64,000 nt of DNA from positions 19,116 through 83,115 of the forward strand of contig CAYWRU010000001.1 of NCBI GenBank assembly GCA_964460795.1, read 5' to 3'. The translations under genes and the position numbers were made by a program. The notes below the pieces were generated by a model. That model searched no databases and was not told the origin of the DNA. It was given only the letters and a program-made list of their open reading frames with translations. This DNA is from an uncultured bacterium. GTDB taxonomy: Bacteria > Omnitrophota > Omnitrophia > Omnitrophales > Aquincolibacteriaceae. Of this stretch, positions 1 through 16,231 are shown piece by piece (within the stretch, counting starts at the first letter, position 1; the number at the start of each line of letters is the position of its first letter).

Positions 1-19
1 GTTTTGGCATCTTGCCACC

Positions 20-352
20 TTAGAGTGCTTGTTTAGTTTGCTTCGGCATAGGCGGACCGTCGAATCGGAAATCAACAAGCGCGGCCTTGCTGCCCAGCAT
101 TGCCTTGACCTGATCGATCACTTGCTGATCGTGCTCGTAGCAATGCACTTGTACGGCGCCGCTTTCGAGGCTGGTTCGAATGGAATCAAACACCAACTGC
201 GCGGCATAGTTCGTAGTTTGCTCCGGCGTACGTTGAATGCGTGATTCATTGCACTTGGCGCCAAGCCAGGCCTCAGTGGCGGCAACGCGTTCACCACGGC
301 CGTGTACCGCGTCCATGTCGATAATGTTTACCTTACCGTCCAGACTTTCCAT
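20..352 (-). CDS. hypothetical protein (110 aa)
   Basis: Track ORF. Co-directional with neighbours, 4-nt gap to the upstream gene. No motif recognised. Confidence 0.5.
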   Translation of the reverse strand: MESLDGKVNIIDMDAVHGRGERVAATEAWLGAKCNESRIQRTPEQTTNYAAQLVFDSIRTSLESGAVQVHCYEHDQQVIDQVKAMLGSKAALVDFRFDGPPMPKQTKQAL

Positions 353-356
353 CGTT

Positions 357-608
357 TCACCTAATTAGTGCAGAGCCGGCCGGAGGGGCAGGCAGTTTAA
401 GTAGCTTGACCTTCGGCGGTGTAATGCCGAAGGTCCAGCAGACGCGGTCGAAGTTAGAGTCAGTGACGCGTGAGACTGTTAATCCCCCGCCTTCGTGTTC
501 ACTGGCTATCATCACGACTTCGCCGGCATCGTTCCGAATCACCACAACGCTTGGGTTGTTGATGACTACGGCGTCCATGCCGAGTCCTTGATGGCACTCT
601 ACCCGCAT
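357..608 (-). CDS. hypothetical protein (83 aa)
   Basis: Track ORF, 1-nt gap to the upstream gene. No motif recognised. Confidence 0.5.
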   Translation of the reverse strand: MRVECHQGLGMDAVVINNPSVVVIRNDAGEVVMIASEHEGGGLTVSRVTDSNFDRVCWTFGITPPKVKLLKLPAPPAGSALIR

Positions 609-609
609 A

Positions 610-1251
610 CTACGCTACTTTCCGAGTCTTCGACAGGATGAGACGCATGGCGTCGGCCTTGTCCACGTTCGCTTCAAGCGCATGCAGCGACGGGTCAAAA
701 GCGTAGCTGCTAGTCTTTTCGCCGCCACCGCCACCGCCGGCCGCTAGAGCCGGAGACGCGCCTTGAATCGGCGAGATGCCGCTGATGGCGCTGCCTGGGC
801 CGGCTTGTTGCGTCTGCGTTTGCTGTTGTGCGAACTGCGTTACGTCGTTGGACGTAGCCACCATTTCGCTAGCAGGGATTTGAATACCGAGCGAGTCAGC
901 AATGCGCGCAAGAATCTTGAGGATCTGCAGCAACGTGACGTTAACGTCGATCTTCGGCTTGATGGGCTCTACGCCGCCGGCTCCACCGCCCGCAGCTGCA
1001 CCGCCGCCTTGGCTAAGGCCTTGAATTTGCTGCTGCATGGATTGGATCATTCCCATAAGGGCGTCCCCACCGCCTCCCCCTGCGGGGGCGCCGCCGGCCG
1101 CAGCTGGGTCAGCAGGAGGTGCACCGGCACCGCCAACAGACGGGTCGGTGGGAGGCGCACCGCCGCCACCGCCGCCAGTCATAGCCGCTTGATCAATGAA
1201 AGCTTCTTTTTGTAGCTGCGAAGCCATTTGCAGCAGTTGCGAATTGAGCAT
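610..1251 (-). CDS. Gly/Ala/Pro/Gln-rich low-complexity protein (213 aa)
   Basis: Contains runs such as GGGGGGAPPTDPSVGGAGAPPADPAAAGGAPAGGGGG and QQQTQTQQ, with a more ordinary segment (DVNVTLLQILKILARIADSLGIQIP). Called on composition only. Confidence 0.55.
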   Translation of the reverse strand: MLNSQLLQMASQLQKEAFIDQAAMTGGGGGGAPPTDPSVGGAGAPPADPAAAGGAPAGGGGGDALMGMIQSMQQQIQGLSQGGGAAAGGGAGGVEPIKPKIDVNVTLLQILKILARIADSLGIQIPASEMVATSNDVTQFAQQQTQTQQAGPGSAISGISPIQGASPALAAGGGGGGEKTSSYAFDPSLHALEANVDKADAMRLILSKTRKVA

Positions 1252-1292
1252 GTAAGAGATCTCCCTATTTCAAGCCAGTATATGGCAGCGCC

Positions 1293-1745
1293 TTACGGCG
1301 CGTAATAGATGTCGCGGACGTTGTCATTCTCGTCCAAATAGATGGTAACGTGGTTGGACACTCCTAGGCACCATTCGGCCTCGTTGTTACGGATAATCCA
1401 CATCGAGTGTGGCTGTAGCCGGAAAACAATATCCTCCCACAATCGGTCGCTGAGCGGCTTCCCAAAATGCCGGCCAAACTGGATACCGCCGCCTTTTTTC
1501 ATTGGGCAGCGTTCGAATCGCTCGTGCTGGCATCCAAGGAATCGGCCCCAGTCGGGCTTACCGTACTTCTTTTCGTCTGCCTCCATCTTAGCCAGGATCT
1601 TGTCCGCCTCTTCCTGGCTAAGCGGTTCGGGGCCGAAATGCACAAGCTGCGGTTTGCCTACGATCACGCCGGGGATGGTGCTTAGATCGAATCCTTCCGG
1701 TAACGTGAAACCTACGTAGTCCTTTTCGCTGCCGTCTTTACTCAT
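1293..1745 (-). CDS. hypothetical protein (150 aa)
   Basis: Track ORF is 1293..1757. I chose the ATG at 1745 because it gives an ATGAGTAA overlap with the upstream stop, the same junction seen at 9086. The ATG at 1757 is also possible. Confidence 0.5.
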   Translation of the reverse strand: MSKDGSEKDYVGFTLPEGFDLSTIPGVIVGKPQLVHFGPEPLSQEEADKILAKMEADEKKYGKPDWGRFLGCQHERFERCPMKKGGGIQFGRHFGKPLSDRLWEDIVFRLQPHSMWIIRNNEAEWCLGVSNHVTIYLDENDNVRDIYYAP

Positions 1746-2589
1746 TGTAGTTCCCATAGTGGCTTCGTAACCCGTGTACTATAGCAGGTTGAGCGGCTGC
1801 GAGCATGTAGGTGGGTAGTCCGACAAACGGAGAAAGACGCTTTGCCAGCGGTAGTTTCTTGCCCGCCGCAGCGGCCGCACTGGCCAAAAGGTTAGAGCCG
1901 CGCCGGGAAGCGTCAAATTCCGTATACAGCATAGGCAGAGCGGCGACGCCGCCGGCGATAGCGTTATCGCGTCCGGTCTCGCTGTCGTTTACCAGATACG
2001 AACCAAGCGACGAAGCGCCAAGAAGACCGCGGCTAAGCGCATGCCCTGTCAGCAATCCTTTGCTTTGCATCGAGTGCCCAAGCTCATGCGCCAGTACGCC
2101 GTTGGTGGGCAGCACGCGTTTACCATTATGCGAGTCCAGGCCGACGGTATTGGTGATAGGGTTGAAGTGTGGACCGGCTTTACTGCGCTCGGCCATCCAT
2201 CGCTGAAAGCGCTGCCAAGCATTACCGCCCTCGGGCATGTTCGCCATTTCGGCGACATTTTCATACGAACGCAGCGTAGGTCCGGCGTCCATGTTATGTA
2301 GCCGCGTGAATTGCATCCACGTGTCTTTCCGGCCTAGCCGATTCCTTGTCGAATCAAAGCGTTGCGGCGTGTGCAGTTTGGTCTGCTTGAGCAGCTGCTT
2401 CAAGATAGCGCGATCATCGCCGGCGCTTGGGTCATAGGCCCCGCCGTTCATGCGCCCAAAGCGCCTAACGATGTTCATAAGACCGCCGGCACCGAGGTCC
2501 ATGGCGACCAACCCGCGCAGATAGCCCAGCGGATCTTTACCTTCTTCCGGCGGCTTAGTAAAGCTATCGACAATGTCTTGAAGCGGCAT
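1738..2589 (-). CDS. putative zinc metallopeptidase (HExxH)
   Basis: 283 aa with a zincin motif, VLAHELGHSMQ. No other family signature recognised. Confidence 0.5.
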   Translation of the reverse strand: MPLQDIVDSFTKPPEEGKDPLGYLRGLVAMDLGAGGLMNIVRRFGRMNGGAYDPSAGDDRAILKQLLKQTKLHTPQRFDSTRNRLGRKDTWMQFTRLHNMDAGPTLRSYENVAEMANMPEGGNAWQRFQRWMAERSKAGPHFNPITNTVGLDSHNGKRVLPTNGVLAHELGHSMQSKGLLTGHALSRGLLGASSLGSYLVNDSETGRDNAIAGGVAALPMLYTEFDASRRGSNLLASAAAAAGKKLPLAKRLSPFVGLPTYMLAAAQPAIVHGLRSHYGNYNE

Positions 2590-2590
2590 C

Positions 2591-2869
2591 CTAACCTCTG
2601 CTTCCTTCGCAACACGATTCGTTAATTCGTCCGCAATCCTTGCATTGCAGTTTGGCTCGAATATCTACCAGTTCGCCGCCGCATGCAAGGCACTTAGTGA
2701 CCGCGCGTTCACAAAGTTGTTCAACCAAGTAGCCGTCATGGCGGCGCTGTTCTTCAACCGGATACGGCAATAAGCAGCCGACAGTCTGATAGGCGAAGAA
2801 TTCAAGCATTACCTCCGGTGTCGGTACGTACTTAATTGGCTCACCAAACTCGTCAAGAATATCAGCCAT
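2591..2869 (-). CDS. small zinc-ribbon protein (92 aa)
   Basis: Start moved to the ATG at 2869, giving a TAATG overlap with the RNAP stop. Cysteine pairs CLACGG...CKDCG. The track's longer N-terminus runs into the RNAP gene. Confidence 0.55.
   Translation of the reverse strand: MADILDEFGEPIKYVPTPEVMLEFFAYQTVGCLLPYPVEEQRRHDGYLVEQLCERAVTKCLACGGELVDIRAKLQCKDCGRINESCCEGSRG
2697..2712 (-). repeat. palindromic element copy (intragenic, 1 mismatch)
   Basis: The plus strand reads gtgaccgcgcgttcac. Lies inside the zinc-ribbon gene and encodes CERAVT. Confidence 0.55.
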
Positions 2870-5800
2870 TACTTCTCCATAATCACAACTTTGTCGCGCA
2901 CGTCGATGTCGCCTCGCTGCCATGCATTCCACACGTCTTGCGGATTGCGGAACACACGCGGGCGACGCTCGCTCTTGCCGGCAGTGGCTGCGTAAAGTCC
3001 GCCCACGTATTCCTGGGTAGGAGCGTGAACGGGAGACTTCATGTCCGACGGGCTCAACAGGTTTCGACTAGGCAGCATTCGATCAATCGCCTCTTTACGC
3101 GCTCGATCATCCACAGGAACGTGGAACTGCATAGCGTCGCCGTCGAAGTCGGCACCAAAGCCTTTCGTCACCAACGGGCTAACGCGCAGCGTTGCGCCCT
3201 TAGTTAGTTTAGGGAAGAAGGCCATGATACCGAAACGGTGAAGTACGGGCGCCCGGTTAAGCAGCACAGGCCGTTCCAGCATTTCAGCTTGCATGGCTTC
3301 CCGCGCTAGTTCCGTCTGGTCTTTTACGTGCCGGGCCGCTTCAACCAGCGGCATTCCGCGGCGAGCTAAGTGCCGGATGATAAAGTGCTTGTAGAGATCC
3401 CAGGCTTTTTCCTCAGGAAGTCCCACTTCATCCATGTCTAGGTTCGGGTCGGGCGTAATGGTTGCTCGTCCAACCAAGTCCACCGTCGAACTAATGAGTC
3501 GGCGCTGGACCGTACCAAGCTTTGGAGACGATCCGAAGATATGTCGCAGCAGGCCGCGGACGTTCTTTTCAACAAGCTTAGGATGCGTCGGATCACCGAG
3601 GCCCGTAACCGCTTTGAACGTGTCGTATACGGCCAAGCGCTCATCACCGACATCATCAATCTGCGTCGACAGTTCCCGCAGATTCTTGTTTGCATCGATC
3701 AGTTCCTTGTATAGGTAGTTTGGATCACTTACCAGCGGCAAGCCGGTATCGGACATGGCGCTGATGGGCCGGAAGCGAGGCGGCAGAACAGGCACGCGAT
3801 TAACGAACCAATCCTTCGGGTGAATGCCGAGAGCTTGCGCGGACTTGAGATAACCGAGTTTGCGGATGGCGTGGTCACGTGCCGTCTTGCGCCCGCCGTG
3901 AATCTCGGCTCTGGCTGTAGCAATCTCTTTGGTGATGTTCATCTTGGACAAAGCCTGGCGAATGCCGCTCGGCCCGCTAGAGCCGTCAGGCAGCTTCTCG
4001 CGGCCGGCCAGGATATCCAGGAACTTCTTTTCGGTAAGGTTGAGCATACGGCGAATAGGCTCTTCCATTACCGGGTTCGGCATAGGCTCGTGCAGCTTTA
4101 CAGCGGCCCAGCGATTGCCGTCGTGCCCGCCTGTTAGCGATGGGTCGAACAAGCCGCCCTTTACCGGCTCCATGCCTTTCTCAAGGCGGACGGTATCGCC
4201 GCTGTTGATATTACGGTCGCCGGCAAGCTCATCGATGTCGCTGTCCGTCATAGCCATAACGTGCAGCTTATTGCCTTCCGGTACTACGTTAATGCCGGCT
4301 GCTTTAAGCTCGTTCACGAACTTGTTGTAGATGAGCGGAATCTGCGGCTTCGGCGGCGTTACGCCCTTCATGAACGCAAGCCAGTAGTCCTCGTTACGCT
4401 GGCCGCGAATAGCGCCGGCATCACGCATGACTTCCAAGGCGCCGTGCGACAGCAGGGCGTTCTGGTCCATTAGCGACATACGCTTGGAACCGGTCTCGCC
4501 GCCCTTGGCCGGTTCGCCGGCCATTGTGTAGCCGCCGGTACCGCGACCCTGAGCTTTGGACTCAGATGTGTGGTGCAGCTTCATGAAGAAGCGGTGACCG
4601 GTAAGTACGGCAGGAATAGCGCGGCCAGTCTCCGGATCGGTAACCGTATCCGTGTCGCTAAGGCCGTGCATCTTCAGCTGATCTTGGACGTGAGCCATCA
4701 CGTCGCTGATCTTGTCGAAGTCCAGGATCTTTTGCGGCTGACCGGTTTGCTTGGCGATCTTGCCCAACGCGGCCTCGGCTACCTGCCCCACGTTAACGCG
4801 GGAGATAAGACCGAGCGGGTTGAGCAGAATATCGAACGCATTGCCCTGGCTGTCCTTCGGCATCTGATCATCCGGAACGATATCGGCAATAACGCCCTTA
4901 TCGCCGTAGCGGCCGGAAAGCTTATCGCCCACCTGCATCTGCGCAATGGACTTAACGAGAACGGTGTGGCCGTTCTTTGTCTTCACTACGTCGGTTACTA
5001 GACCGGGAGCATGATGCTTCCATAGTTCGGTGGCGTCCTCGAATCCGGCTTGGCCTTTGCGGTGGACTTTGTTCTGAGCCGACTCGCGCTCCTTGGCCGA
5101 AAGAATGAGCGGATCGCCGAAGTTAACGACCGTGCCAGGTTTAATAACGCCGTCATCGTCAAGATTCGCAATTGTGTTACGGTCGAACTTAGATGGGAAC
5201 AAGCCTAGATACGTGCGCTTGCCGGTCTTATGCTTGTCCGTCAGTTCGATTCCGTGTTGATACATGTGCTCGCTGGACAGCTTCTTGGCCGCAGCTTCGC
5301 TGATAACGAACGCGTCTTCGTAGTTCGCACCGCGGAAAGGCAGATAGCCGGCGTACAGGTTCTTGCCCAGTGCCGCCGTACCGGTCTTGTCCGTGTAGTT
5401 GCTGTACGCCAACAGCTGGCCTGGTTGAACCTGGTCGCCGATGTTTACGGCAGCGGTATTGTGCACGTACGTTTTACGGTTGTACGGGAAATGGTTGTAC
5501 AGCTGCTTGGTGGACGTAGTGCCGTCTGGATGACTGATCGTCATCGAGTCGTTGTCCATAGCCGTCACCCAGCCCGGCTTATCGGCGCGAATAGCGCCCA
5601 TCTGCCGGCCGTGTAGCTCTTCGAACGATTCGTTCTTACCGGGAGCCAATCCCTGCACTAGCGGAGCTTCTGCATCCACAAGCGGCAAAGCCTGTGTGAG
5701 CATGCGGCTACCCATCGCTACGCGCTGACCTTTAACCGCGCTCTTAAGCGGGATGAGGTTTGCGAGCGGACTGAAGGCATTCTCAAAGTGGGGCAGCGTG

Positions 5801-7332
5801 AGTTCGACCTGGTCCCGCGGCATATATTTGATCTTGCCGCCATGCATCGCAACAACACGTTTACCAGGACGGTCAAGTTCCCCTGGAAACGCGACAGCCA
5901 TGTCGGTAACGTCCTGCGGCGACTTCCATTCGGTGGCTCCGGTTTTGACATTAACGAATGGCGAGTAAATGCGACCGTCGCGACCTTTACGCGTTTGGTT
6001 AGCCAGAAAGATATCAACGCCCGCGCGAAGAGATTCCGGCGTGCGAATGGGGTCCATGAACCCGAGGTGCGATGGCTGGACGGATCGAGCTTCATCAGGC
6101 ACGGCTTCAAGCGATGGAATGCCGCCTTCGCCAAGCCGCGTGATACGGGTGAGCTTGTCAAAAATGTCAGCCGGGTTAATTTCTTCGAGACTCTGTCCCA
6201 GCCCCGAACCCAGCAAGGCTGCTTCCAATTGCGACGTAAGGGCTCCAGGTTGTACGTGCTTAAGGGTCCGCGAGAGGCCGGACTTCCATAGCAGGTTGTG
6301 TCGGATACGGCCCGAATCTTTGGTAAACCGCTCACTAAATAGATCCTCTGGTCCCATGACTACTTGGTTAGCGAGGTGATCGCGGTCGTCCGCTTCTTCC
6401 TCGCCGCGAGATACTTTAAGCAGCTTCTGTGTCAGTCGAAGAAGTGCGGCTTTATCGAGTTTGGCGAACGGCTGCCCCAGTGTTCGTTGTGTGATCTCTG
6501 GATCAAGTTCCATTTCATCCATAGCTGCAAGGAGCTTGGTCCGCTGTGTAGGCTCGTCGTCGGTGTCGGCTCGGCCTTTGGCGAGCTTGTCGTAGAGCTT
6601 ACGCAGTACGATGGGATCATCTTTAAGCATGTTGGAGGCAACAAGCTCAGGACCCCACGCTTCACGTAGTTCTTCGTCCTTTGCGCCCATGATGCGCAGC
6701 AGCGGCATGAGCGGAAGTTTCGCTTGGCCCAGGCGCATGTAGAACTGGCCTTTCGCAGGGTCCAAGAAATAGCGATGGCTAGGTCCCTTACCAGGCATAA
6801 TGTTCGCATGTGCTTCGATCTCTCCGTTGTCTTTGATACGGGTAAATACGCCGGGACGCAGACGCATCTGGTTGCCGAGCGTATATTCGTTACCGTTGTG
6901 GATGAATGTACCGCGGTCTGTAAGATACGGCACTCGGGCCACTGTGGACTTGATCTCGTCCAGTACGTTGCCGGTGGCGTTGTCCTTCAGTCGCCATGTG
7001 CCGCGCAAGCGCCGCCCAAGCGTCTTGCCTTCGAGAATGGCGCGCTTCTGGTCGGCAATGCTGTAATCGTCGGGATCGGCATAGTCCACGTCTGCAAGCT
7101 CCAACGTATGGAGCTTGTTCGTGGCCGGCTTCATAGTGCGAGCGGCTTCCAGGACGTTATCGAAGATAAGCTGCCGGCTTTTGGCCGCATCGCCGAATTC
7201 GCGATAGTCCGAACCGTCCGAAGCCGGCATGGGCTTCATAGGCGGCGCAGCCGGTTGCTGCGGCTTTACGACGGAAGCGGGCGTGGAAGCCATCGGGCGG
7301 GACAGCACAGAGAAGGGTTTATCTGCTGGCAC
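2869..7332 (-). CDS. multisubunit-type RNA polymerase, fused beta-like plus beta' N-terminal-half polypeptide (1487 aa)
   Basis: GTG start. Beta motifs appear in order: LTDRGTFIHNGNEYTL..RLRPGVF, TRLGEGGIP..VQPSHLGFMDPIRTPES, GQRVAMGSRMLTQALPL, GANYEDAFVIS, GDKLSGRYGDKGVI..LLNPLGLISRVNVGQV, FMKLHHTSESKAQGRGTGGY..GEPAKGG. Beta' motifs follow: GGLFDP, VLPPRFRP, NRAPVLHRFGIMAFFP, and GADFDGDAMQFHVP at about 3130-3160. Confidence 0.9.
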   Translation of the reverse strand: MPADKPFSVLSRPMASTPASVVKPQQPAAPPMKPMPASDGSDYREFGDAAKSRQLIFDNVLEAARTMKPATNKLHTLELADVDYADPDDYSIADQKRAILEGKTLGRRLRGTWRLKDNATGNVLDEIKSTVARVPYLTDRGTFIHNGNEYTLGNQMRLRPGVFTRIKDNGEIEAHANIMPGKGPSHRYFLDPAKGQFYMRLGQAKLPLMPLLRIMGAKDEELREAWGPELVASNMLKDDPIVLRKLYDKLAKGRADTDDEPTQRTKLLAAMDEMELDPEITQRTLGQPFAKLDKAALLRLTQKLLKVSRGEEEADDRDHLANQVVMGPEDLFSERFTKDSGRIRHNLLWKSGLSRTLKHVQPGALTSQLEAALLGSGLGQSLEEINPADIFDKLTRITRLGEGGIPSLEAVPDEARSVQPSHLGFMDPIRTPESLRAGVDIFLANQTRKGRDGRIYSPFVNVKTGATEWKSPQDVTDMAVAFPGELDRPGKRVVAMHGGKIKYMPRDQVELTLPHFENAFSPLANLIPLKSAVKGQRVAMGSRMLTQALPLVDAEAPLVQGLAPGKNESFEELHGRQMGAIRADKPGWVTAMDNDSMTISHPDGTTSTKQLYNHFPYNRKTYVHNTAAVNIGDQVQPGQLLAYSNYTDKTGTAALGKNLYAGYLPFRGANYEDAFVISEAAAKKLSSEHMYQHGIELTDKHKTGKRTYLGLFPSKFDRNTIANLDDDGVIKPGTVVNFGDPLILSAKERESAQNKVHRKGQAGFEDATELWKHHAPGLVTDVVKTKNGHTVLVKSIAQMQVGDKLSGRYGDKGVIADIVPDDQMPKDSQGNAFDILLNPLGLISRVNVGQVAEAALGKIAKQTGQPQKILDFDKISDVMAHVQDQLKMHGLSDTDTVTDPETGRAIPAVLTGHRFFMKLHHTSESKAQGRGTGGYTMAGEPAKGGETGSKRMSLMDQNALLSHGALEVMRDAGAIRGQRNEDYWLAFMKGVTPPKPQIPLIYNKFVNELKAAGINVVPEGNKLHVMAMTDSDIDELAGDRNINSGDTVRLEKGMEPVKGGLFDPSLTGGHDGNRWAAVKLHEPMPNPVMEEPIRRMLNLTEKKFLDILAGREKLPDGSSGPSGIRQALSKMNITKEIATARAEIHGGRKTARDHAIRKLGYLKSAQALGIHPKDWFVNRVPVLPPRFRPISAMSDTGLPLVSDPNYLYKELIDANKNLRELSTQIDDVGDERLAVYDTFKAVTGLGDPTHPKLVEKNVRGLLRHIFGSSPKLGTVQRRLISSTVDLVGRATITPDPNLDMDEVGLPEEKAWDLYKHFIIRHLARRGMPLVEAARHVKDQTELAREAMQAEMLERPVLLNRAPVLHRFGIMAFFPKLTKGATLRVSPLVTKGFGADFDGDAMQFHVPVDDRARKEAIDRMLPSRNLLSPSDMKSPVHAPTQEYVGGLYAATAGKSERRPRVFRNPQDVWNAWQRGDIDVRDKVVIMEK

Positions 7333-7340
7333 GTTAGTCT

Positions 7341-7386
7341 CTGATAGCTAAAGAAAAGAAGCGTAGGCGGGTTTCCCCGCCTACGC
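7341..7386 (-). terminator. rho-independent terminator followed by conserved TAGCTATCAG box
   Basis: Minus strand reads GCGTAGGCGGGgaaaCCCGCCTACGC then TTCTTTTCTTTAGCTATCAG. It lies between paralog A and the RNAP gene. Confidence 0.75.
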
Positions 7387-7425
7387 ATTCTAGTGCGAAC
7401 ACGGTATTTGAGCCTAGTCTTTCGA

Positions 7426-8031
7426 CTAGAACCCGACGTTGACCGGGTCCGCGGCCTTTTCCTTGGCTTTCCGATCGTTCTCTTCGAGAAGAGCAATGAC
7501 GCGGTCACATTCGGCATTCACTTCTTCGGGCGTAGCCGGACGCCACGTGGTGCCGTGAGCTTTCGCCTTTTCGGTGTTCGGCGCATAGCAGGGCGCGTTA
7601 TTGCCGCGCCGAAGTATGAAGCCTTTGTCGTCGAACTGGCGGCTGGCGCCGCTGGTGGTGCTGCCTTCGAAGAACGCGACTCGGTTCAAGGCGTAGTCGT
7701 GCTGCGACGAATTTCCGGTCATAACGATCGGAAAGCCCTTCGGAAGGTTGTAGGAACCGCCCGACGTAGCAATTCCGGCCGCTGCCGCCAACTTCTCGGG
7801 ATCAAGATCGAACAGAGCGGCTACGACCTGCACCACTCCCGGTGCGTTGGTCAAGAAGTGGGCCTTGGCGAGCCGGGCGGCTTTGATGGCGCGAGCTTCT
7901 TCAGCCGGCAACAAGGCCTCGGCCACGTCTTCGGCCACGGGCGGTTTGTATTCGGCCAACCGCTGGAGCGCCGTAGCGCGCAGATTGTTGACCTGAATGA
8001 CGGTAAGGGTTACGGGATACTCACTAGCCAT
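7426..8031 (-). CDS. hypothetical protein, tandem paralog A (201 aa)
   Basis: ATG at 8031 with AAAGGA upstream; the track ORF starts at a TTG at 8064. Homologous to the 8117..8752 product: NLRA(T/S)AL, HDY(A/G)LNRVAF, WRPAT.EE(V/I)NAECDR, and a C-terminal GF. Confidence 0.65.
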   Translation of the reverse strand: MASEYPVTLTVIQVNNLRATALQRLAEYKPPVAEDVAEALLPAEEARAIKAARLAKAHFLTNAPGVVQVVAALFDLDPEKLAAAAGIATSGGSYNLPKGFPIVMTGNSSQHDYALNRVAFFEGSTTSGASRQFDDKGFILRRGNNAPCYAPNTEKAKAHGTTWRPATPEEVNAECDRVIALLEENDRKAKEKAADPVNVGF

Positions 8032-8116
8032 GTTCTGCAATCCTTTCAAATAACTGAAATTCAAAACAAACTAACGCATACGTAAATCGAACTCGAACTT
8101 GGACGAACTGAACGAC

Positions 8117-8752
8117 TTAGAAGCCGATACCGGCCGTCTCCGGTTTTACAGTTGCGGCGCGCGCCAACGCCATCGCGCGATCACATTCGGCATTGATCTC
8201 TTCGGCAGTGGCCGGGCGCCACGTGTCTTGATACACGCGGCCGCGCTCGAAGAGCGGAGCATGATTGCCTTTGCCAAAAACGCCCTCATCAGAAAACTGC
8301 CAGCAGTGTCCCTGGCGGGTACCGTCCAAGAAGGCGACTCGGTTCAAGCCGTAGTCGTGACCGTTGACATTGGCGATCATAACGATCGCCATGCACTTGT
8401 CCGCGGGTTCGTCGACGAATCGCGGATACGTGCCGGTATCCGTTTCGGGACCCGTATAAATATCCGCGACTTCTACGCCGGCGATTGCGGCGATGAGATG
8501 GGCCAGACCTTTTTGGTGGCCCGAGCCGAAATGCACAGCGGCTTTTGCCATAGCTGCCGACGCGCGCTTGAACGGCAAGCCTTCTTTGTCAGTGCCCGTG
8601 GGCTTGACTTCAGCCGGCTTGTACGAGCGTTCGGCTTTGACGGTGTTGCACTTATCGACACGCGCAAGTGCCGACGCACGCAGATTCTGAATCTGCGTCA
8701 TGACCAGAGTTCGCGAATACCCGCTAGGCGTCCACATAGGTACAGTCTCCAT
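8117..8752 (-). CDS. hypothetical protein, tandem paralog B (211 aa)
   Basis: Shares blocks with 7426..8031 along its whole length. Its upstream intergenic region carries a terminator plus box. Confidence 0.65.
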   Translation of the reverse strand: METVPMWTPSGYSRTLVMTQIQNLRASALARVDKCNTVKAERSYKPAEVKPTGTDKEGLPFKRASAAMAKAAVHFGSGHQKGLAHLIAAIAGVEVADIYTGPETDTGTYPRFVDEPADKCMAIVMIANVNGHDYGLNRVAFLDGTRQGHCWQFSDEGVFGKGNHAPLFERGRVYQDTWRPATAEEINAECDRAMALARAATVKPETAGIGF

Positions 8753-8818
8753 ACAGTGAAAGTAAGAATAGGTAGCTCTCTACCCATTTACTTTGACACT
8801 GCATGGGGCTGTATTTAG

Positions 8819-8858
8819 CTGATAGCTAAAAGAAAGAGAATCACCGGGCTAAGCCCGG
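8819..8858 (-). terminator. rho-independent terminator followed by conserved TAGCTATCAG box
   Basis: Minus strand: CCGGGC-tta-GCCCGG stem, then TTCTCTTTCTTTTAGCTATCAG. Confidence 0.6.
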
Positions 8859-8876
8859 CAATACTCTAATCTTGTT

Positions 8877-9086
8877 TCACCAGTCTACGGGTACGGTGAT
8901 CCCTTCACGCCAATACCCACTGTCGGGATCGGCGGCACGCGCGGCGAATTCAGCCTTTGCCGCTGTTCGATCTTCGGCTTCGCAGCTATCCACTGCGTAA
9001 GCCACGCTGTCATCGGCATTCGGCCGGCTGCTCCACACTTCCATGGCGCAACCGTCGATCTCAACTAGGTAGTAGGTCTTACTCAT
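8877..9086 (-). CDS. hypothetical protein (69 aa)
   Basis: ATG at 9086 gives an ATGAGTAA overlap with the upstream stop. The track ORF starts at 9107. Confidence 0.5.
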   Translation of the reverse strand: MSKTYYLVEIDGCAMEVWSSRPNADDSVAYAVDSCEAEDRTAAKAEFAARAADPDSGYWREGITVPVDW

Positions 9087-9474
9087 GGCCCACACTCCTA
9101 GCGTCACGCATTGCAGCGTGAGCTTGATCCAAGGCTTGAATTATACTCAGCTCCCAATCGGAGATCTGCTTCCAAGTCATTCCTTGAATATCGAGCAGCT
9201 TCGGTCCGCGCCCTCTGTAGAAGCGCATCACGACGCGTACCCAATGCCGGCCCATCACCTGCGCGAACAGACAATCGATCATAGATCGATAGCTGCGCGC
9301 GGCGTGGCGAAAACCAGGGACGTACTTTAACGCCTTCTGGTATTCGGTTTCACGGAGCAATTCCTCGACATGAGGAAAGATGGTCTCGGTAGCGCCACCG
9401 AAGACCAGCAGCTGACGTTGCTGCAATACCGGAGCTTGAACAAGGCACAAGCTCATGCCGAAGCCTAGACCCAT
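9079..9474 (-). CDS. hypothetical protein (131 aa)
   Basis: Start moved to the ATG at 9474, with AGGAG upstream. The track's N-terminal extension to 9525 is encoded by a terminator hairpin. Confidence 0.5.
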   Translation of the reverse strand: MGLGFGMSLCLVQAPVLQQRQLLVFGGATETIFPHVEELLRETEYQKALKYVPGFRHAARSYRSMIDCLFAQVMGRHWVRVVMRFYRGRGPKLLDIQGMTWKQISDWELSIIQALDQAHAAMRDARSVGHE

Positions 9475-9503
9475 ATGGATCTGATCTCCTGGTCTGTGTG
9501 TCT

Positions 9504-9541
9504 GTGAAAAGAGCCTGCCCGGCACAGACTACCGGGCAGGC
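9504..9541 (-). terminator. candidate rho-independent terminator
   Basis: 10-bp stem GCCTGCCCGG/CCGGGCAGGC. On the minus strand it is followed by CTCTTTTCAC, a short T run. Confidence 0.5.
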
Positions 9542-9649
9542 CCCAATCAACGTGCCGTCCAAGACGGCCCGCGACGAACCGGCCGGTTCATCGCGTGTAA
9601 TCGAGAGATATGAGCCTCTCAAGTACTTTACCGCAATTCGCGGTAATAT

Positions 9650-11122
9650 TTAGCTGCCGTGAGTGCGGCTGGCGATGCTGTCACGCAAGCTCTGCGTTTG
9701 CTGCATGTACTCGTCATATGCCGAGTCCAGTTTACCGCGCAGGCCGCTAAGGTTGACTTGGCCTGCGCCGGCTAAAGCAGGGCGGCTGCCGTGCGAGCCT
9801 ACCATGGAACCAAGACCGGCTCCAAGAATGTCGCCGAGACCAAGTCGACTGAACAGCCTACGGCCTGCTAAGGTCTTGGCGCCTGCCACGCCGAGCAAGC
9901 TGCCGGCCAATCCGCTTAGACCTTCGCTTGTAGATGTTTCACCGCGCGTTAGGCCTTCAATAGGTTTGACGCCTCCGTGGATAAACCCACCGATACCGGG
10001 AACCGCGGCCAGTAGATCTTTGCGATCAAATGATTCCTTTTCCTGCGAAACCGGTTCAGCGTACAGCGGCGACGGTTGCGACTCGTACATCTTACGACGA
10101 CGGGCGCTTTGCGCACGGCGCAGAAGTTCCGACTCTTGACGCTTCTTGAAGTGGTTGTAAACCAGCGCAGCCGTAATGGCTCCGCTTCCAAGGGCACCTA
10201 CGCCGTATGCACCTGTAAGAGCACCGGCGGCGTTTGTGTACGTAGTGGGATCGATGGCCGCGGACGCTAGTTCCGAAAAGCCGGCTGTTTTCTCAAGGGC
10301 GCAGAATTGGTCGTATAGGCGATCAAGCTCTACAGCCGCCGACGAATCGGAAGCAGTTTTGCCTTTGTTCTTGTACTCGTTCATCAGCGCCTGTTCGTAT
10401 TCCGTCTGAGCGCTCTCTAGCTCGCCTTCAAGCTCGGCCTTGCGCCGGGAGTCCAGCAGCTTGTCCGCCACCTTCCAGCCGCCGTAGAGGCCTCCCAGGC
10501 CCGCTGCAAGGCCCGCGGGGATAGCCCAGGGGATTCCGGCCGGGGTCACAGCCTGATCGCCCTGCAGGAAGCTCCCAGGGCCTAATAGGCCACCTTCCTT
10601 ATTCAGCCCGCCCACGAGCGCGCCGATACCGCCTCCGGCGCCAGCGCCGTATTGGGCACCTTCTACACCGAAGCGCTTAATTGCCTGATTGCGCATCTGG
10701 CGAATCGCTTTGTCGCCAAAGATGCCCTTGAAGAAATTCATAACGGATGGCCGGGTGCTGTATAGTCCTCGAAGCAATCCAGCCATTCCGCCCAAGCCTG
10801 CGCCCACGCCAAGGCCGACTGCGCCGCCTGTGAGTGTGCGGCCAATAAGTCCTTGGTCCTCAGCCGTCTTGGCCGGAATCGGAATTTGCATGGAGACAGG
10901 GGCGGATGCCGGCCGCTTTTGCTTCTTAATGTTTCGGCGGTAAAGGCCGTGAAGAGCCGATACGCCGCGAGCCGCAGCCCCTACTCCGGCGAGGCCAAGG
11001 CCGGCAAGGCCGAGGCGACGAAGCGTATTCATTTGCATCTGGCGAGCCGTAGCCAATTGAACGGCATCTTCCAGGGAACCAACCTCAATGGCGGCGGATT
11101 TGAGTAGCGACATGCAAAACAT
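9650..11122 (-). CDS. glycine-zipper-rich membrane-associated protein (490 aa)
   Basis: Repeated small-xxx-small hydrophobic segments (GLAGLGLAGVGAAARG, GGAVGLGVGAGLGGMAGLL, GAGAGGGIGALVGG, AGLAAGLGGLYGG) and a charged coiled-coil middle. Confidence 0.6.
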   Translation of the reverse strand: MFCMSLLKSAAIEVGSLEDAVQLATARQMQMNTLRRLGLAGLGLAGVGAAARGVSALHGLYRRNIKKQKRPASAPVSMQIPIPAKTAEDQGLIGRTLTGGAVGLGVGAGLGGMAGLLRGLYSTRPSVMNFFKGIFGDKAIRQMRNQAIKRFGVEGAQYGAGAGGGIGALVGGLNKEGGLLGPGSFLQGDQAVTPAGIPWAIPAGLAAGLGGLYGGWKVADKLLDSRRKAELEGELESAQTEYEQALMNEYKNKGKTASDSSAAVELDRLYDQFCALEKTAGFSELASAAIDPTTYTNAAGALTGAYGVGALGSGAITAALVYNHFKKRQESELLRRAQSARRRKMYESQPSPLYAEPVSQEKESFDRKDLLAAVPGIGGFIHGGVKPIEGLTRGETSTSEGLSGLAGSLLGVAGAKTLAGRRLFSRLGLGDILGAGLGSMVGSHGSRPALAGAGQVNLSGLRGKLDSAYDEYMQQTQSLRDSIASRTHGS

Positions 11123-11204
11123 CCTTGTTTATCGGGACCGGTGCTCGTGACAGCCTAGCAAATATGAGACGGCTAGGAGTAGAGCAGCTACGGCGTAGTA
11201 CAAG

Positions 11205-11315
11205 CTAGAGGTTATCACTGCTGTGATGTTTCTTAAAAACGTACGCTGCTACCAGGGCGATCTGGATAAGCAGTCCAAGTCCAAGCCATAAGAACGGTGT
11301 AAGCGGACCGATCAT
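11205..11315 (-). CDS. small membrane peptide (36 aa)
   Basis: Found manually, below the track cut-off. The ATG is 1 nt after the upstream stop. Sequence MIGPLTPFLWLGLGLLIQIALVAAYVFKKHH. Confidence 0.35.
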   Translation of the reverse strand: MIGPLTPFLWLGLGLLIQIALVAAYVFKKHHSSDNL

Positions 11316-11316
11316 G

Positions 11317-11682
11317 TTAGTCTCCGTTGGGGCCATTTAGCCGGCTTTGGGGGATTTCCATGTGCGGTTCGAGCCATTCGATGTAGACCACCCAGTTCTT
11401 CTTTTCGCGTATAAACTGTCGCTCTACGAACAAGATCTTGTACCACTTGTTGGCGGCACGATCCAGGATTTGCTTGTATACGGCGCGCTGTTCCGGCACT
11501 GATAAGTCGAACGTATCAACCTGAGCATCGTTAACGCGCTCTGCAAGCGCCTCGTACTGGTCTTCCTTGAGGACTACTGCCTTAGGCCCGCGGAACGGTG
11601 CTCCGTCAGTCTTAGCCCGACCCCAAAAGATCTTATCTTGACCCTCACCGCCAATGTCTAGGTATTTGAGGAACGAACCCAT
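11317..11682 (-). CDS. hypothetical protein (121 aa)
   Basis: Track ORF, 1-nt gap to the upstream gene. No motif recognised. Confidence 0.55.
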   Translation of the reverse strand: MGSFLKYLDIGGEGQDKIFWGRAKTDGAPFRGPKAVVLKEDQYEALAERVNDAQVDTFDLSVPEQRAVYKQILDRAANKWYKILFVERQFIREKKNWVVYIEWLEPHMEIPQSRLNGPNGD

Positions 11683-11683
11683 A

Positions 11684-12112
11684 TTAAATCAATGGACGAC
11701 CACGACGCACATTCTGGTTCTTGGAAGCATGCAAAGACGCCGCCATACGAGCACGTTGAGCCAGACGCTTGTGTTCGTCAATTAGCTCCTTGAGTTTTGT
11801 TTCTTCGACGTCTTCATCGTTAACGTCGGTGAGAGCTGCGGCGCCATAACCAAGCCCGGCGCCTGCGGCAATCGGAAGACCAAGAGCCAAGCCCGTGCCT
11901 AGCCCAGTGGTCGTGTGGTAGAGGTTGTCCAGGATGCCGGCGCGCTTGGTGGCCGTAGCGTCCCATAGTGTGCTTGCCGTAGCGCCCTTAACGGCATTAG
12001 TAAGTTCAGCCTGGGCTTGTTTTACGGCCGCAAGAGTTTCGGCCATGTCAAAGCCCTTATCGGCGCAGCCGGCCAAAAAGGCGGCTTTGAAAGTCTCACG
12101 TCGAGTCAGCAT
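11684..12112 (-). CDS. glycine-zipper protein (142 aa)
   Basis: Contains GLGTGLALGLPIAAGAGLGYGAAAL flanked by helical charged regions. Confidence 0.55.
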   Translation of the reverse strand: MLTRRETFKAAFLAGCADKGFDMAETLAAVKQAQAELTNAVKGATASTLWDATATKRAGILDNLYHTTTGLGTGLALGLPIAAGAGLGYGAAALTDVNDEDVEETKLKELIDEHKRLAQRARMAASLHASKNQNVRRGRPLI

Positions 12113-12133
12113 CCTTGCTCTCCTTCTATCGGC

Positions 12134-12538
12134 CTAAGCCGGAAATTCACTCATCCGCTTAGTAGAAGCTTTTGGAATGTTCATGCCAACGCTGATCTGC
12201 TGCGGCAGCCGGCGGATACGGTCCTTAATCATGCTCGGATCGTCGTAAGAACCCTGCTCTCGGGCCTGCCGGATCACTGCGGGAGCTTTCTCGCAGAATT
12301 CCAGGTCCGATTCCAGATATGGCAGGAATTTGTATTCCGGCGTGTTTCTTTTACTATTCCCAAGACGCAGGCGTTTGCCGTTGAAGTCGGAGATAGCCGC
12401 CACACGCTCGGCAGCCACCCGCCAGTGCATGGCCTCGTAGTAGCCGGTCTTTACGTCCTCAACATGCACTAAGCCGTTCTCGGCCCACACTTTGATGTGC
12501 CGCAGGTTCAGTACGTTGTGTTGCCCTAGTATGTACAT
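12134..12538 (-). CDS. hypothetical protein (134 aa)
   Basis: Track ORF. Its start overlaps the upstream stop by 1 nt. Confidence 0.55.
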   Translation of the reverse strand: MYILGQHNVLNLRHIKVWAENGLVHVEDVKTGYYEAMHWRVAAERVAAISDFNGKRLRLGNSKRNTPEYKFLPYLESDLEFCEKAPAVIRQAREQGSYDDPSMIKDRIRRLPQQISVGMNIPKASTKRMSEFPA

Positions 12539-12729
12539 TACTTGCTCTCGTCCTTTTGGATGTACGGCCGCAGTAGCGAAATAGCCAAGTCACTCAGCTC
12601 TGCGTTGGGTAGGTTGACCGGGTCTGCGGCCGATTGCAGCATGTTTGTAACTTGCTGAATCGTCATGTGGCGCCGCATAAGCTCGGCTGTGACGCACAGA
12701 AGCAATTCCTCGGGCTCGAACTTAAACAC
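12538..12729 (-). CDS. hypothetical protein (63 aa)
   Basis: Track ORF, abutting both neighbours. Confidence 0.5.
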   Translation of the reverse strand: MFKFEPEELLLCVTAELMRRHMTIQQVTNMLQSAADPVNLPNAELSDLAISLLRPYIQKDESK

Positions 12730-12984
12730 TTAGTCGCCTCCGCAGTAATAGCCATATGAATCGTACTTACCTTGTCCGGCCCGACGCAAGCTTTGGTCTT
12801 TGACCGGGTAGAACGGAAGGCCCATGCTCGTTATACGCCACCACTTATCGGTGTCGTCGATGCGCACATAAGCGCCGGGCTCCAGCCCCTCCTGTACGGG
12901 GCACACAAACTGAGTAGTCAGGTCATCACGCTTTACGGACAGCTTGACGTGAAGCTCACGTCGTTCGCCTACATCAAAACACAT
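12730..12984 (-). CDS. hypothetical protein (84 aa)
   Basis: Track ORF. A copy of the palindromic element ends 1 nt before its ATG. Confidence 0.5.
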   Translation of the reverse strand: MCFDVGERRELHVKLSVKRDDLTTQFVCPVQEGLEPGAYVRIDDTDKWWRITSMGLPFYPVKDQSLRRAGQGKYDSYGYYCGGD

Positions 12985-12985
12985 A

Positions 12986-13003
12986 TTGCACGCGCGTTCA
13001 CAA
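12986..13003 (-). repeat. palindromic element copy (TGAACGCGCGTGCAAT on minus strand)
   Basis: The plus strand reads ttgcacgcgcgttcacaa. Abuts the start codon of 12730..12984. Confidence 0.7.
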
Positions 13004-13039
13004 AGTAGCGGTTAGTCTTACACCAGTGTACACGAAATG

Positions 13040-13067
13040 AAAAAAGCCGGCCCATTTAGGACCGGCT
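13040..13067 (-). terminator. rho-independent terminator
   Basis: Minus strand: AGCCGG-tcctaaatggg-CCGGCT followed by TTTTTTC. Lies downstream of 13085..13384. Confidence 0.65.
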
Positions 13068-13084
13068 TTGTGCAGCGCACGGCG

Positions 13085-13384
13085 TTACCCGGCGACCTTA
13101 AGCCGCTCGATACGCCGTTGCTCGACGGGCAGCTTCTTGTAGTCGTCGGTAGACAGGACTTTCTTTTGCTCTTCGCTACGTGTGTCATTCACGTACTTGA
13201 TGGCGGCGTTGAGGCCGGCGGTGATGAGCGGCAGGATGGCCAGACCGAGCGGGCTGGTGATGGCGATGCTCGGAATGACGGACTGCACTACGAACGTGAG
13301 AGCGGCGGCTAGCGCCACTAGACTAGTGTCCTTGAGAATCTTGATCAGATCGGACTTAGTCAATTGGAACGGAAAACTACCCAT
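13085..13384 (-). CDS. small two-helix membrane protein (99 aa), holin-like topology
   Basis: Hydrophobic stretches LVALAAALTFVVQSVIPSIAI and LGLAILPLITAGLNAAI, then a charged tail. Called on topology only. Confidence 0.5.
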   Translation of the reverse strand: MGSFPFQLTKSDLIKILKDTSLVALAAALTFVVQSVIPSIAITSPLGLAILPLITAGLNAAIKYVNDTRSEEQKKVLSTDDYKKLPVEQRRIERLKVAG

Positions 13385-13550
13385 GCTTCTTATCCTTTGC
13401 CTTGGAACGGAGTTCGCCTTCCATTCTAGCTGCTACCTTTAGCATTTCAATGAAGGCGGCTTTTTGATCAGGAGACGCTACTTTCTTAAGCCCGGCCTGT
13501 ACGGCACGCGCCACTCTATCAAGCGTTTCGTATGCTTCGTTTTCTAACAT
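13377..13550 (-). CDS. small helical protein (57 aa)
   Basis: Found manually. The ATG at 13550 is 2 nt after the TAGCTATCAG box. The stop overlaps the next ATG (ATGGGTAG). Confidence 0.45.
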   Translation of the reverse strand: MLENEAYETLDRVARAVQAGLKKVASPDQKAAFIEMLKVAARMEGELRSKAKDKKHG

Positions 13551-13552
13551 GG

Positions 13553-13600
13553 CTGATAGCTAAGAAAAAGCGATGGCGGGGCCGAAGCCCCAACCATCGC
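13553..13600 (-). terminator. rho-independent terminator followed by conserved TAGCTATCAG box
   Basis: Minus strand: GCGATGGttGGGGCttcgGCCCCgCCATCGC, then TTTTTCTTAGCTATCAG. Confidence 0.75.
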
Positions 13601-13636
13601 AGTATAGCCGGCGAGTGCGCACTTGTCAGCTACTAA

Positions 13637-14290
13637 CTACGGCGTCTCGTCTAAGACGGTCGGATTAGCACGAAAGCGACTATGCGGCAGCAGGTGCTGG
13701 ATTGCCCGCATAGGCGCGAATATGTGCTTTCCGGTCAACCACGGCAACTTACTCCACTGTGGAAGCTGGAAGAAGTTGATGCCGCCTACGTCCTTTTCAA
13801 TCGTACCCGCAGCTATCGCTACGAGTGCGTAGAAAACCTTGTCATGATAACAAGCGTCTACCATCTCCAGGCGTGTGAGGCCGAAGAAGTTTACAACGAC
13901 GTCGGGCTTAAGCGAGGCCGGCAACTTACGTGGAAACGTAAGCGTATCTTCCGTATACACGCCGAGAGAGAAATCCCACAGCAGCGGCTCTCTTCGAGTC
14001 GGCTCCTGCGGGAGGTTACTCCTCAGCGCGAAATGCATGGCGTTGAGCAAATGCTTTGCCTCAAGGAATGCATCGCCGGCGTACCTCGGAAAGAAATCAA
14101 GAACTTCGAAGGTGCTGTTTTCGAACGTCTTTGATGCTCGGAGCACGTATCGGCGATACGGTCTCCGCGGCATGTCTACCTTGGACGGAACCAAGGCGGT
14201 TTGATCGGGCTTGGCGAACAAGCCCTTGAAGCCGGTGACGACCGAGGCCATGACGGCCGTCACGGTCTCGATAAAGGAACGGCGATTCAA
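13637..14290 (-). CDS. Tat-signal protein (217 aa)
   Basis: N-terminus MNRRSFIETVTAVMASVVTGFKGLFA contains the twin-arginine consensus (RRxF followed by a hydrophobic stretch). Confidence 0.6.
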   Translation of the reverse strand: MNRRSFIETVTAVMASVVTGFKGLFAKPDQTALVPSKVDMPRRPYRRYVLRASKTFENSTFEVLDFFPRYAGDAFLEAKHLLNAMHFALRSNLPQEPTRREPLLWDFSLGVYTEDTLTFPRKLPASLKPDVVVNFFGLTRLEMVDACYHDKVFYALVAIAAGTIEKDVGGINFFQLPQWSKLPWLTGKHIFAPMRAIQHLLPHSRFRANPTVLDETP

Positions 14291-14291
14291 G

Positions 14292-14858: not shown

Positions 14859-14875
14859 GGCCGCGCTCTCCTTAG

Positions 14876-15355: not shown

Positions 15356-15383
15356 AGCGCCAATCTCCAACAGGGTTAAGTAA

Positions 15384-15866: not shown

Positions 15867-15880
15867 GAAAAGAAAGCTGA

Positions 15881-16189: not shown

Positions 16190-16213
16190 GGCTGCACCTG
16201 TTGGTTATAAGGA

Positions 16214-16231
16214 TTGCGAACGCGCGTTCAC
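16214..16231 (-). repeat. palindromic element copy
   Basis: The plus strand reads ttgcgaacgcgcgttcac. Lies directly after the stop of 16231..16416 and about 25 nt upstream of the next start. Confidence 0.7.

Follow-up and report, generated by a model that had tools for sequence, protein, structure and literature searches.

Accounts of the multisubunit RNA polymerases (RNAPs) of phages at present centre almost exclusively on the phiKZ/AR9 type, and the reviews of phage RNAPs consulted, which cover only phiKZ/AR9 and single-chain enzymes, are silent on any fusion of a beta subunit with the N-terminal part of beta' (beta-beta'N). Such a fusion, of 1487 amino acids (aa), is encoded in the 64-kb stretch of contig CAYWRU010000001.1 analyzed here (positions 19,116 to 83,115; the whole stretch is referred to as the window), and the best explanation of the data as a whole, which we hold to be very likely, is that this protein serves as the large catalytic subunit of a bacterial-type multisubunit RNAP of a phage with a two-polypeptide core. 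According to the reviews, the enzymes of phiKZ-like (Chimalliviridae) and AR9/PBS-like phages have no known alpha or omega homologues, and they lack sigma homologues and use gp68 or gp226. As in the window, they are two-barrel enzymes of phages with beta' broken into an N-terminal and a C-terminal piece (beta'N and beta'C) at nearly the same place: beta'N ends opposite fusion residue ~1459 in gp223 of the RAY non-virion RNAP and opposite ~1452 in rpoC_2 of the AR9-like phage Goe21, i.e., within ~30-35 residues of the end of the window protein at 1487. They differ from it in that beta, too, is cut (into 2-3 pieces) and all pieces remain separate. Their subunit families were matched weakly (phrog_3295, 5e-23; phrog_2987, 1e-17), and in tblastn phiKZ/AR9 reached ~49-64 bits as compared to ~155-184 bits for bacterial beta'; judged by sequence, the fusion is much closer to bacterial enzymes than to those of the phiKZ type.

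Helicobacter and Wolbachia possess natural full-length beta::beta' fusions, which are cellular, comprise ~2,900 aa and still come with alpha2, omega and sigma. In these and in an engineered Escherichia coli rpoB-rpoC tether, the C-terminal end of beta passes directly into the N-terminal end of beta', as it does in the window protein, and they show that a beta-to-beta' connection is sterically compatible with an active enzyme. The Helicobacter and Wolbachia chains contain the whole of beta', whereas the window chain stops at about beta' residue 553, i.e., after its front ~40%. An earlier, sequence-only reading of this stretch had set the architecture apart both from phiKZ-like phages, with their separate N and C pieces of beta and beta', and from the full-length fusions of Helicobacter and Wolbachia, and the comparison agrees with it on both counts. 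In cyanobacteria and plastids, beta' is cut, as in the window, past the NADFDGD loop and ahead of the bridge helix, yielding gamma/RpoC1 and beta'/RpoC2. Cyanobacterial gamma (8syi_D) matched fusion residues 1119-1479 (E 8e-46) and runs ~72 residues past the fusion end (position 552 of 624 at residue 1479); these lineages differ from the window in their separate rpoB and in keeping the zinc-binding domain.

The nearest phage profiles (PHROGs 24349 and 25354) represent unfused genes, as found in the Rhizobium phage RHph_Y65 (Kleczkowskaviridae), Cobetia phage Carin-5 and Vibrio phage Va2, where beta' is a single protein of 1083-1127 aa and beta, where found, is separate; in Carin-5 a sigma gene adjoins the polymerase genes. 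YonO, the crAss-like gp66 and the tape-measure-fused RNAP of P23-45 carry, like the window protein, both barrels in one chain, and some of them are virion-packaged. These single-chain enzymes are minimal and extremely diverged, with few beta/beta' accessory domains, whereas the window protein has retained the bacterial set of domains and depends on a second chain for bridge helix and trigger loop. No description of the beta-beta'N plus beta'C layout was found in the papers searched or in PHROGs; the paper on the 'moraphage' lineage deals with phages without any RNA polymerase genes (PMC12619734).

The fused gene and its separate beta'C partner

The features of the two polymerase genes, in window coordinates, are the following, where DPBB stands for double-psi beta-barrel.

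2869..7332, minus strand: whole beta-beta'N fusion gene, 1487 aa, GTG start, stop TAA at 2871-2869
4270..7332, minus strand: beta module, residues 1-1021, from the alignment to E. coli beta, PDB matches, invariant residues and Foldseek; from N to C, Pro/Ala-rich N-terminal extension (~1-55), lobes, fork/Rif-pocket region, DPBB with conserved Lys/Arg, and C-terminal clamp part up to ...GINVVPEGN
2872..4269, minus strand: beta'N module, residues 1022-1487, clamp without zinc-binding domain and catalytic DPBB
6118..6207, minus strand: counterpart of the rifampicin-binding region in beta (residues 376-405), from the phmmer alignment to E. coli RpoB
4084..4158, minus strand: Cys-free GGLFDPSLTGGHDGNRWAAVKLHEP in place of the beta' zinc-binding domain, residues 1059-1083, from an alignment of E. 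coli beta' and 10 family members
3136..3156, minus strand: GADFDGD, residues 1393-1399, with the Mg2+-binding triad D1395, D1397 and D1399, invariant in 82 homologues
1..21, minus strand: start of the beta'C gene, ATG at 10-8 and Shine-Dalgarno-like AAGGTGG at 21-15, recognized by its match to contig L003; the gene runs off the left edge

According to the listing of open reading frames (ORFs) and the translation, the ORF at 2869..7332 comprises 1487 codons without an internal stop. Its soft point is the start codon, either GTG at 7332 or ATG at 7293, and residues 1 to ~50 are rich in Pro, Ala and Ser and weakly conserved. A complete bacterial-type beta, contiguous and unsplit, occupies residues ~60-1021. 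Pfam RNA_pol_Rpb2_6 (PF00562) matched residues 592-937 (E 1e-51) and Rpb2_3 residues 380-439 (E 2.6e-5); in the same frame as these beta domains, Rpb1_2 (PF00623) was recognized with its best stretch reaching residue 1417 (E 3.5e-26), accompanied by a weak Rpb1_1 match under the curated cut-off (residues 1169-1223). Among PDB sequences, the N-terminal ~1040 residues matched bacterial beta chains with E-values down to 2e-70 and residues 1091-1484 bacterial beta' chains with E about 1e-52, values that put the RNAP match far past chance. The PHROG profiles nearest to the two halves were phrog_24349 (E 8e-73) and phrog_25354 (E 1e-53), the beta'N module covering positions 139-540 of the 1216 positions of the latter. 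Alignment to RpoB/RpoC profiles and to phiKZ/AR9 subunits, one of the checks that the sequence-only reading had proposed, matched both halves, and the similarity to phiKZ/AR9 was weak. A model of residues 288-1487 made with AlphaFold2 (AF2) is confident, with a mean predicted local distance difference test (pLDDT) score of 80.5 and a predicted template modelling (pTM) score of 0.69. Its top Foldseek matches in the PDB were bacterial beta chains and nothing else new, and no fused analogue was found by Foldseek among the viral predicted structures of BFVD. An exact database look-up with either start codon returned no entry for the fusion protein, and megablast of window positions 1-20000 against GenBank phages returned no match.

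With E. coli RpoB and RpoC as alignment references, fusion residues 116-1018 align with beta 107-1339, the Rpb2_6 barrel region aligning with beta 1058-1126 and 1193-1339, and residues 1094-1474 align with beta' 155-540; the C-terminus of the fusion corresponds to about beta' residue 553. The junction lies at residue 1021/1022 (nucleotide (nt) ~4270) and is linker-free, ...GINVVPEGN running straight on into beta'; an equivalent of E. coli beta' residues 1 to ~17 is missing from the fusion. The beta part, with ~960 homologous residues as compared to 1342 in E. coli, is compact because the stretches at which the alignment jumps from E. coli residue 241 to 419 and from 886 to 1058 are absent. ORF, Pfam and PDB matches and the E. 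coli alignment together bear out the single 1487-aa beta-beta'N polypeptide that the sequence-only reading had announced, including its 'compact' beta, and the factual statements of that reading were right to within a few residues. It had also let the chain stop soon after the catalytic loop, which holds; the distance, put there at ~95 residues, is 88 residues from the last Asp of GADFDGD.

In an alignment of 82 homologues at 56-88% identity, the catalytic residues D1395, D1397 and D1399 as well as the beta residues K918, H921, K926 and R930 are invariant (82/82). The Cys-free GGLFDPSLTGGHDGNRWAAVKLHEP stands for E. coli beta' ~58-106, which comprises C70, C72, C85 and C88, and for part of the next region. 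The four-Cys zinc-binding domain of beta' is absent in every aligned family member, including those of the isolated phages Arash and D69 introduced below, and the loss of the zinc-binding cysteines noticed earlier for the window protein is therefore a trait of all aligned members. In the rifampicin-binding region, the changes D516 to E, H526 to K, S531 to T and F514 to S relative to E. coli yield a diverged Rif pocket, from which insensitivity of the fusion enzyme to rifampicin is predicted.

Bridge helix and trigger loop lie outside the fusion protein and are carried by a separate beta'C gene, whose existence beyond the window had been postulated from the early end of the chain. Its start codon is still inside the window at nt 10-8 and its body lies past the left edge: the minus-strand sequence from 10 to 1, ATGCCAAAAC, matches ATGCCAAAG... 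at position 17323 of L003, the contig of a homologue (P0001) that is 99% identical to the window fusion. In L003 the fusion gene is followed by six small genes and then by a 648-aa PF04998 protein (Rpb1_5; 17323-19269, E 5e-19), residues 136-356 of which correspond to E. coli beta' 721-954 (bridge helix and first half of the trigger loop) and residues 311-478 to beta' 1096-1268, the SI3 insertion being absent. The phrog_25354 profile is tiled by the fusion (139-540) and beta'C (614-1099). The same arrangement was found in L003, L004, L005 and all loci long enough (60/60): the beta'C gene lies 0.9-6.7 kb downstream on the same strand and is never fused to the beta-beta'N gene.

Distribution of the family and its isolated relatives

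The same ORF was present in independent assemblies, represented by homologues of 99% (P0001) and 86% (P0002) identity. The 120 best homologues from a search of 5.8 billion proteins, at 51-99% identity, came from Logan, JGI, ENA and NCBI assemblies with contigs of up to 234 kb; all of them (120/120) contain both PF00562 and PF00623, and most are 1444-1530 aa long. When the 487 C-terminal residues served as query, exhaustive searching with HMMER yielded 1873 cluster representatives at E <= 1e-30. Among the best 150 of these 1873, which are 44-67% identical, the full-length ones carry the beta'N segment at the extreme C-terminus of proteins of at least 1440 aa, the fusion and its stop point being conserved together. 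Moreover, the full fusion was present in 61 of 70 IMG/VR loci, on viral contigs of up to 234,886 bp (IMGVR_UViG_3300025536_000010). Among 185,579 bacterial and archaeal species genomes (one each), the family match was a single 1.7-kb fragment of a metagenome-assembled genome. This near-absence from cellular genomes, together with the presence on viral contigs, marks the beta-beta'N family as viral by its distribution. The window gene is a new member of a large family already in databases.

Many of the fusion and beta'C genes are far longer than the norm, up to 3350 aa (e.g., P0010, P0019, P0089, P0118, P0155, and L005 10001-16594 and 17992-23406), and those overlong homologues for which precomputed Pfam matches exist contain intein, homing-endonuclease or LAGLIDADG domains (PF14528, PF14890, PF03161). 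In the Vibrio phages D181 (L009 2941-8455) and D148, the fusion gene is cut by a homing-endonuclease insert of ~950 nt into ORFs of 514 and 1006 aa. The loci L072-L080 (IMG 3300045988 and 3300038441; 103-212 kb) were rejected as members of the fused family: they belong to a different phage group and have only a stand-alone homologue of the beta N-terminal lobe (fusion residues 77-483, ~40% identity), which is itself split in two by a 388-aa ORF, e.g., in L072 at 9860-10639 and 11839-12981, and no catalytic barrel was detectable within 10 kb of it.

A tblastn search against GenBank phages detected matches in one piece, which cover 94-96% of the protein and are 30-31% identical, in Salmonella phage Arash and in the Vibrio phages D69, D148 and D181, which are the only isolated phages found with the beta-beta'N plus beta'C layout. 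D69-like phages were isolated from a mix of seawater and oyster. As in the window, a beta-beta'N protein of ~1525 aa (1525 aa for Arash gp206) is followed downstream on the same strand by a beta'C protein of ~606-609 aa (gp206 and gp216 in Arash; VPHD69_0261 and 0264 for D69/D148/D181), and the linker-free junction, the deletion of the zinc-binding domain and the C-terminal end point are shared. Since junction and deletion are common to Arash/D69 and the window clade, the sequences argue for a single origin of the layout. Arash and D69 differ from the window clade in genome size (180-187 kb, as compared to contigs of up to ~235 kb), in the portal gene upstream of the fusion (Arash), in the lack of a Gly/Pro/Met-rich gene between the polymerase genes, and in sigma-like genes located 8-10 kb from the polymerase genes.

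The Arash genome contains one copy only of the beta/beta'N gene. In mass spectrometry of purified particles, no protein was detected more often than its product gp206 (3516 spectra, 128 unique peptides, coverage 100%), and the particles likewise yielded gp216 (beta'C) and the sigma-like gp10 (PMC10585845). In that work gp206 is called 'subunit beta' and gp216 'beta'', and the fusion is unremarked (PMC10585845). The sequence-only reading had allowed for the fusion being catalogued already. This applies to the proteins, which are deposited as 'RNA polymerase subunit beta' (Arash gp206 and JGI names) and were seen in the Arash virion proteome, but not to the fusion itself, which is unrecorded in PHROGs and the papers searched.

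The proposed two-polypeptide enzyme and its alternatives

Following this, we propose that the core enzyme would consist of two chains. The 1487-aa chain, in which the complete beta is followed by the first ~40% of beta', brings both active-centre DPBBs together, and beta'C (~650 aa) would supply bridge helix and trigger loop along with what remains of the secondary channel and the jaw. The covalent beta-beta' link may substitute for the alpha-dimer assembly platform. The window yielded no gene for an alpha N-terminal domain, for omega or for sigma: sigma70, alpha and omega Pfam families were found neither among its 104 minus-strand ORFs nor in a Pfam scan of 58 window ORFs. The enzyme would be packaged in the virion, be injected and start phage transcription without host polymerase; packaging and injection are probable for the window clade by analogy, because the 31%-identical Arash homologue is abundant in particles. 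For promoter recognition in this clade, we infer that a further factor is needed.

The fusion is real and is confirmed not to be an assembly artefact. That a frameshift, an assembly error or a chimeric join merged an rpoB-like and an rpoC-like gene is scarcely credible: the sole ground for it, with no evidence found, is that beta and beta' are normally encoded by separate adjacent genes, whereas the ORF is uninterrupted in Logan, JGI, ENA and NCBI assemblies, in 61 IMG/VR contigs and in four isolated phage genomes, the junction is conserved at the protein level and Arash gp206 is covered by peptides to 100%. The frameshift near 4200-4260 that the sequence-only reading had named as its possible refutation accordingly failed in view of the independent assemblies and the conserved junction. 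It is also very improbable that the gene is captured host DNA, namely a decaying, nonfunctional rpoBC fragment truncated in rpoC, despite the fact that its closest solved structures and its best BLAST matches from outside the family are bacterial beta/beta' at about 25-33% identity. That level contrasts with 44-99% between family members, the catalytic residues are invariant and the end point is the same throughout the family, the 'missing' half lies downstream in every locus, and the 185,579 species genomes yielded the one 1.7-kb fragment only. Furthermore, the gene has been colonized repeatedly by inteins and homing endonucleases, which we take as a hint of a conserved, essential gene.

Several observations weigh against a packaged enzyme that works with phage components alone, and two alternatives build on them. 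The activity, subunit composition and virion packaging of the window-clade enzyme are what we infer from relatives of which Arash, the one with particle data, is just 31% identical in the fusion. The gene neighbourhoods differ as well, a portal gene lying upstream in Arash and a member of a ~300-aa family in the window clade; iterated profiles of the window-clade neighbours against Arash and D69 ORFs detected no homology, and when the window was searched by tblastn for the genes next to the Arash polymerase (portal, gp205, gp216-220, sigma), the fusion match was the only one. The Arash authors themselves state that abundant enzymes might merely co-purify with the particles (PMC10585845). This contamination would suit a non-virion phage RNAP, which would be synthesized once infection is under way and serve middle or late genes while the host polymerase transcribes the early ones, an option that we rate as possible and yet as the less favoured one. 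It would be in line with the absence of identifiable virion genes adjoining the fusion in the window, where the neighbours are mostly ORFans, with the strong terminator-like hairpin just upstream, by which the gene begins its own unit whatever its timing, and with host-takeover-type proteins encoded in the window, e.g., a T7 gp5.9-like RecBCD inhibitor. It is countered by the finding that in Arash, with its single beta/beta'N gene copy per genome, the two polypeptides rank together with a sigma-like protein among the particle proteins of highest abundance, by a match to a minor-tail-protein PHROG ~8 kb downstream of the cassette in the relative L004 and, as weak evidence, by the scarcity of sigma70-like promoter matches around the fusion gene (1 found as compared to 4.1 expected).

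A hybrid enzyme, in which the phage core of fusion and beta'C recruits host alpha2, omega and/or sigma, appears unlikely. Compared with phiKZ-type enzymes, the fusion lies far nearer to bacterial polymerases, and subunits of the host (alpha, omega or sigma) may be used by the phage enzyme. Searches by jackhmmer with the Arash, D69 and Carin-5 sigma seeds detected no sigma-like gene, neither in the window nor in 70 loci up to 10 kb from the fusion, and the 99%-related phage L003 encodes at 904-1254 a 116-aa protein resembling the C-terminal domain of alpha (alpha-CTD; PF03118, E 4e-12). In none of the other loci of the 70 was an alpha-CTD-like gene present within 10 kb, and in the window it is replaced by unrelated sequence at 15891-16398. 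A second polymerase set might also be encoded elsewhere in the ~200-kb genome, of which the window covers 64 kb. Against the hybrid stand the deletion of the beta' zinc-binding domain with the adjacent region, which in bacterial holoenzymes is located near sigma and the RNA exit path, the sigma-like proteins that Arash and D69 encode themselves, one of which is in particles, and an artificial beta-beta' tether in E. coli, which was reported to ease assembly (Severinov et al., J Biol Chem 1997).

Beyond the gene itself, we consider it an even question whether the two-polypeptide enzyme represents a third major class of phage multisubunit RNAPs, which would be characterized by a bacterial-like core of two polypeptides without alpha platform and beta' zinc domain, by packaging in the virion, by its own punctuation (hairpin, T-tract and TTAGCTATCAG, described below) and by two partner proteins of conserved families flanking the fusion, and which would extend over hundreds of lineages of uncultivated phages of 180-235 kb. 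If true, its combination of a phiKZ/AR9-like break point with a bacterial-like sequence would connect these two groups. The family is a different solution from the phiKZ/AR9 type, with the two largest subunits tied together, beta' cut at a phiKZ-like position, the zinc domain dropped and apparently no alpha, and it is abundant in metagenomes and has cultivable members (Arash on Salmonella, and D69-like phages). It makes testable whether a bacterial-type core can assemble and work without an alpha dimer, what recognizes promoters for a beta-beta'N enzyme, and whether the beta' break shared with phiKZ-type enzymes reflects common descent or a site so permissive that they converged on it. Such tests are relevant to the dispute over an ancient as opposed to a bacterial origin of phage polymerases. 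On the practical side, the enzyme may offer a compact, probably rifampicin-insensitive, orthogonal transcription system.

Flanking genes and DNA elements

Four further features lie near the polymerase genes of the window.

610..1251, minus strand: 213-aa Gly/Pro/Met-rich protein with a KPKIDVNV...Q-I-K-x-LA-K motif, conserved cassette partner
2591..2869, minus strand: 92-aa CxxC-x12-CxxC protein, whose ATG at 2869-2867 overlaps the fusion TAA by one base (TAATG)
7341..7386, minus strand: GC-rich hairpin (7386-7361, 11 pairs), T-tract and conserved 11-mer TTAGCTATCAG (7351-7341), ending 8 nt before the GTG
9650..11122, minus strand: 490-aa protein of the upstream flank family, which is conserved and elsewhere has members of ~300 aa

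Two protein families accompany the polymerase genes. The Gly/Pro/Met-rich family (~230 aa) is encoded between fusion and beta'C in 58 of 60 loci, GGAPPMDPAM-like repeats preceding its KPKIDVNV..QI.K.LAK motif, and a member of the ~300-aa family is located immediately upstream, ending at most 400 nt from the fusion start, in 59/60; in the window, extra genes are inserted on both sides of the fusion gene. Neither family had a match in Pfam, PHROG or PDB sequences, the PDB profile searches giving noise only, and both are candidates for accessory subunits or packaging partners. The one-base overlap TAATG suggests translational coupling of the 92-aa protein with the fusion gene. The CxxC spacing of this protein resembles that of the lost beta' zinc ribbon, and a family-wide replacement of the zinc-binding domain in trans by it was considered and rejected, as it is present in the window and L003 only; elsewhere, the 60 loci encode three CxxC proteins that are unrelated.

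The composite of hairpin, T-tract and TTAGCTATCAG occurs three times on the minus strand of the window, at 7386-7341, 8862-8819 and ~13600-13553, with stems that differ between the copies; by our own arithmetic, about 0.03 exact 11-mers would be expected, as compared to the 3 found. Degenerate copies lie near 39888-39878, 45095-45085, ~49030 and ~63590. In relatives, the element was detected in L003 (4678 and 9983), L004 (4565), L015 (3252), L017 (1817/3554), L018 (2004/3498), L021 (4027), L054 (6458) and L069 (19360), and altogether ~17 distinct sites in 1.5 Mb of related loci are all on the coding strand, with none on the other strand. From its composition, the element may be a terminator-plus-promoter, a hairpin-dependent promoter or a processing site of phage transcription.

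Another repeated element, the palindrome GTGAACGCGCGTTCAC, matched at seven positions of the window with at most 3 mismatches (0.66 expected), namely 2697, 12986, 16216, 23983 (exact), 38133, 49949 and 55743. At least the copies at 12986, 16216 and 23983 are intergenic, and the one at 2697 is inside the 92-aa gene just downstream of the fusion; the palindrome looks like a putative operator for a dimeric DNA-binding protein. By our own ORF picking, ORFs on the minus strand occupy ~96% of the window, in which no tRNA genes were found. The T7 gp5.9-like RecBCD inhibitor is encoded in its first ~31 kb, and positions 31000-64000 encode several glycosyltransferases, an RmlD/epimerase, ThiF, two AAA ATPases and an ATP-dependent DNA ligase, as well as a 5'-deoxynucleotidase, a cold-shock domain, a Band-7 protein and a non-specific endonuclease.

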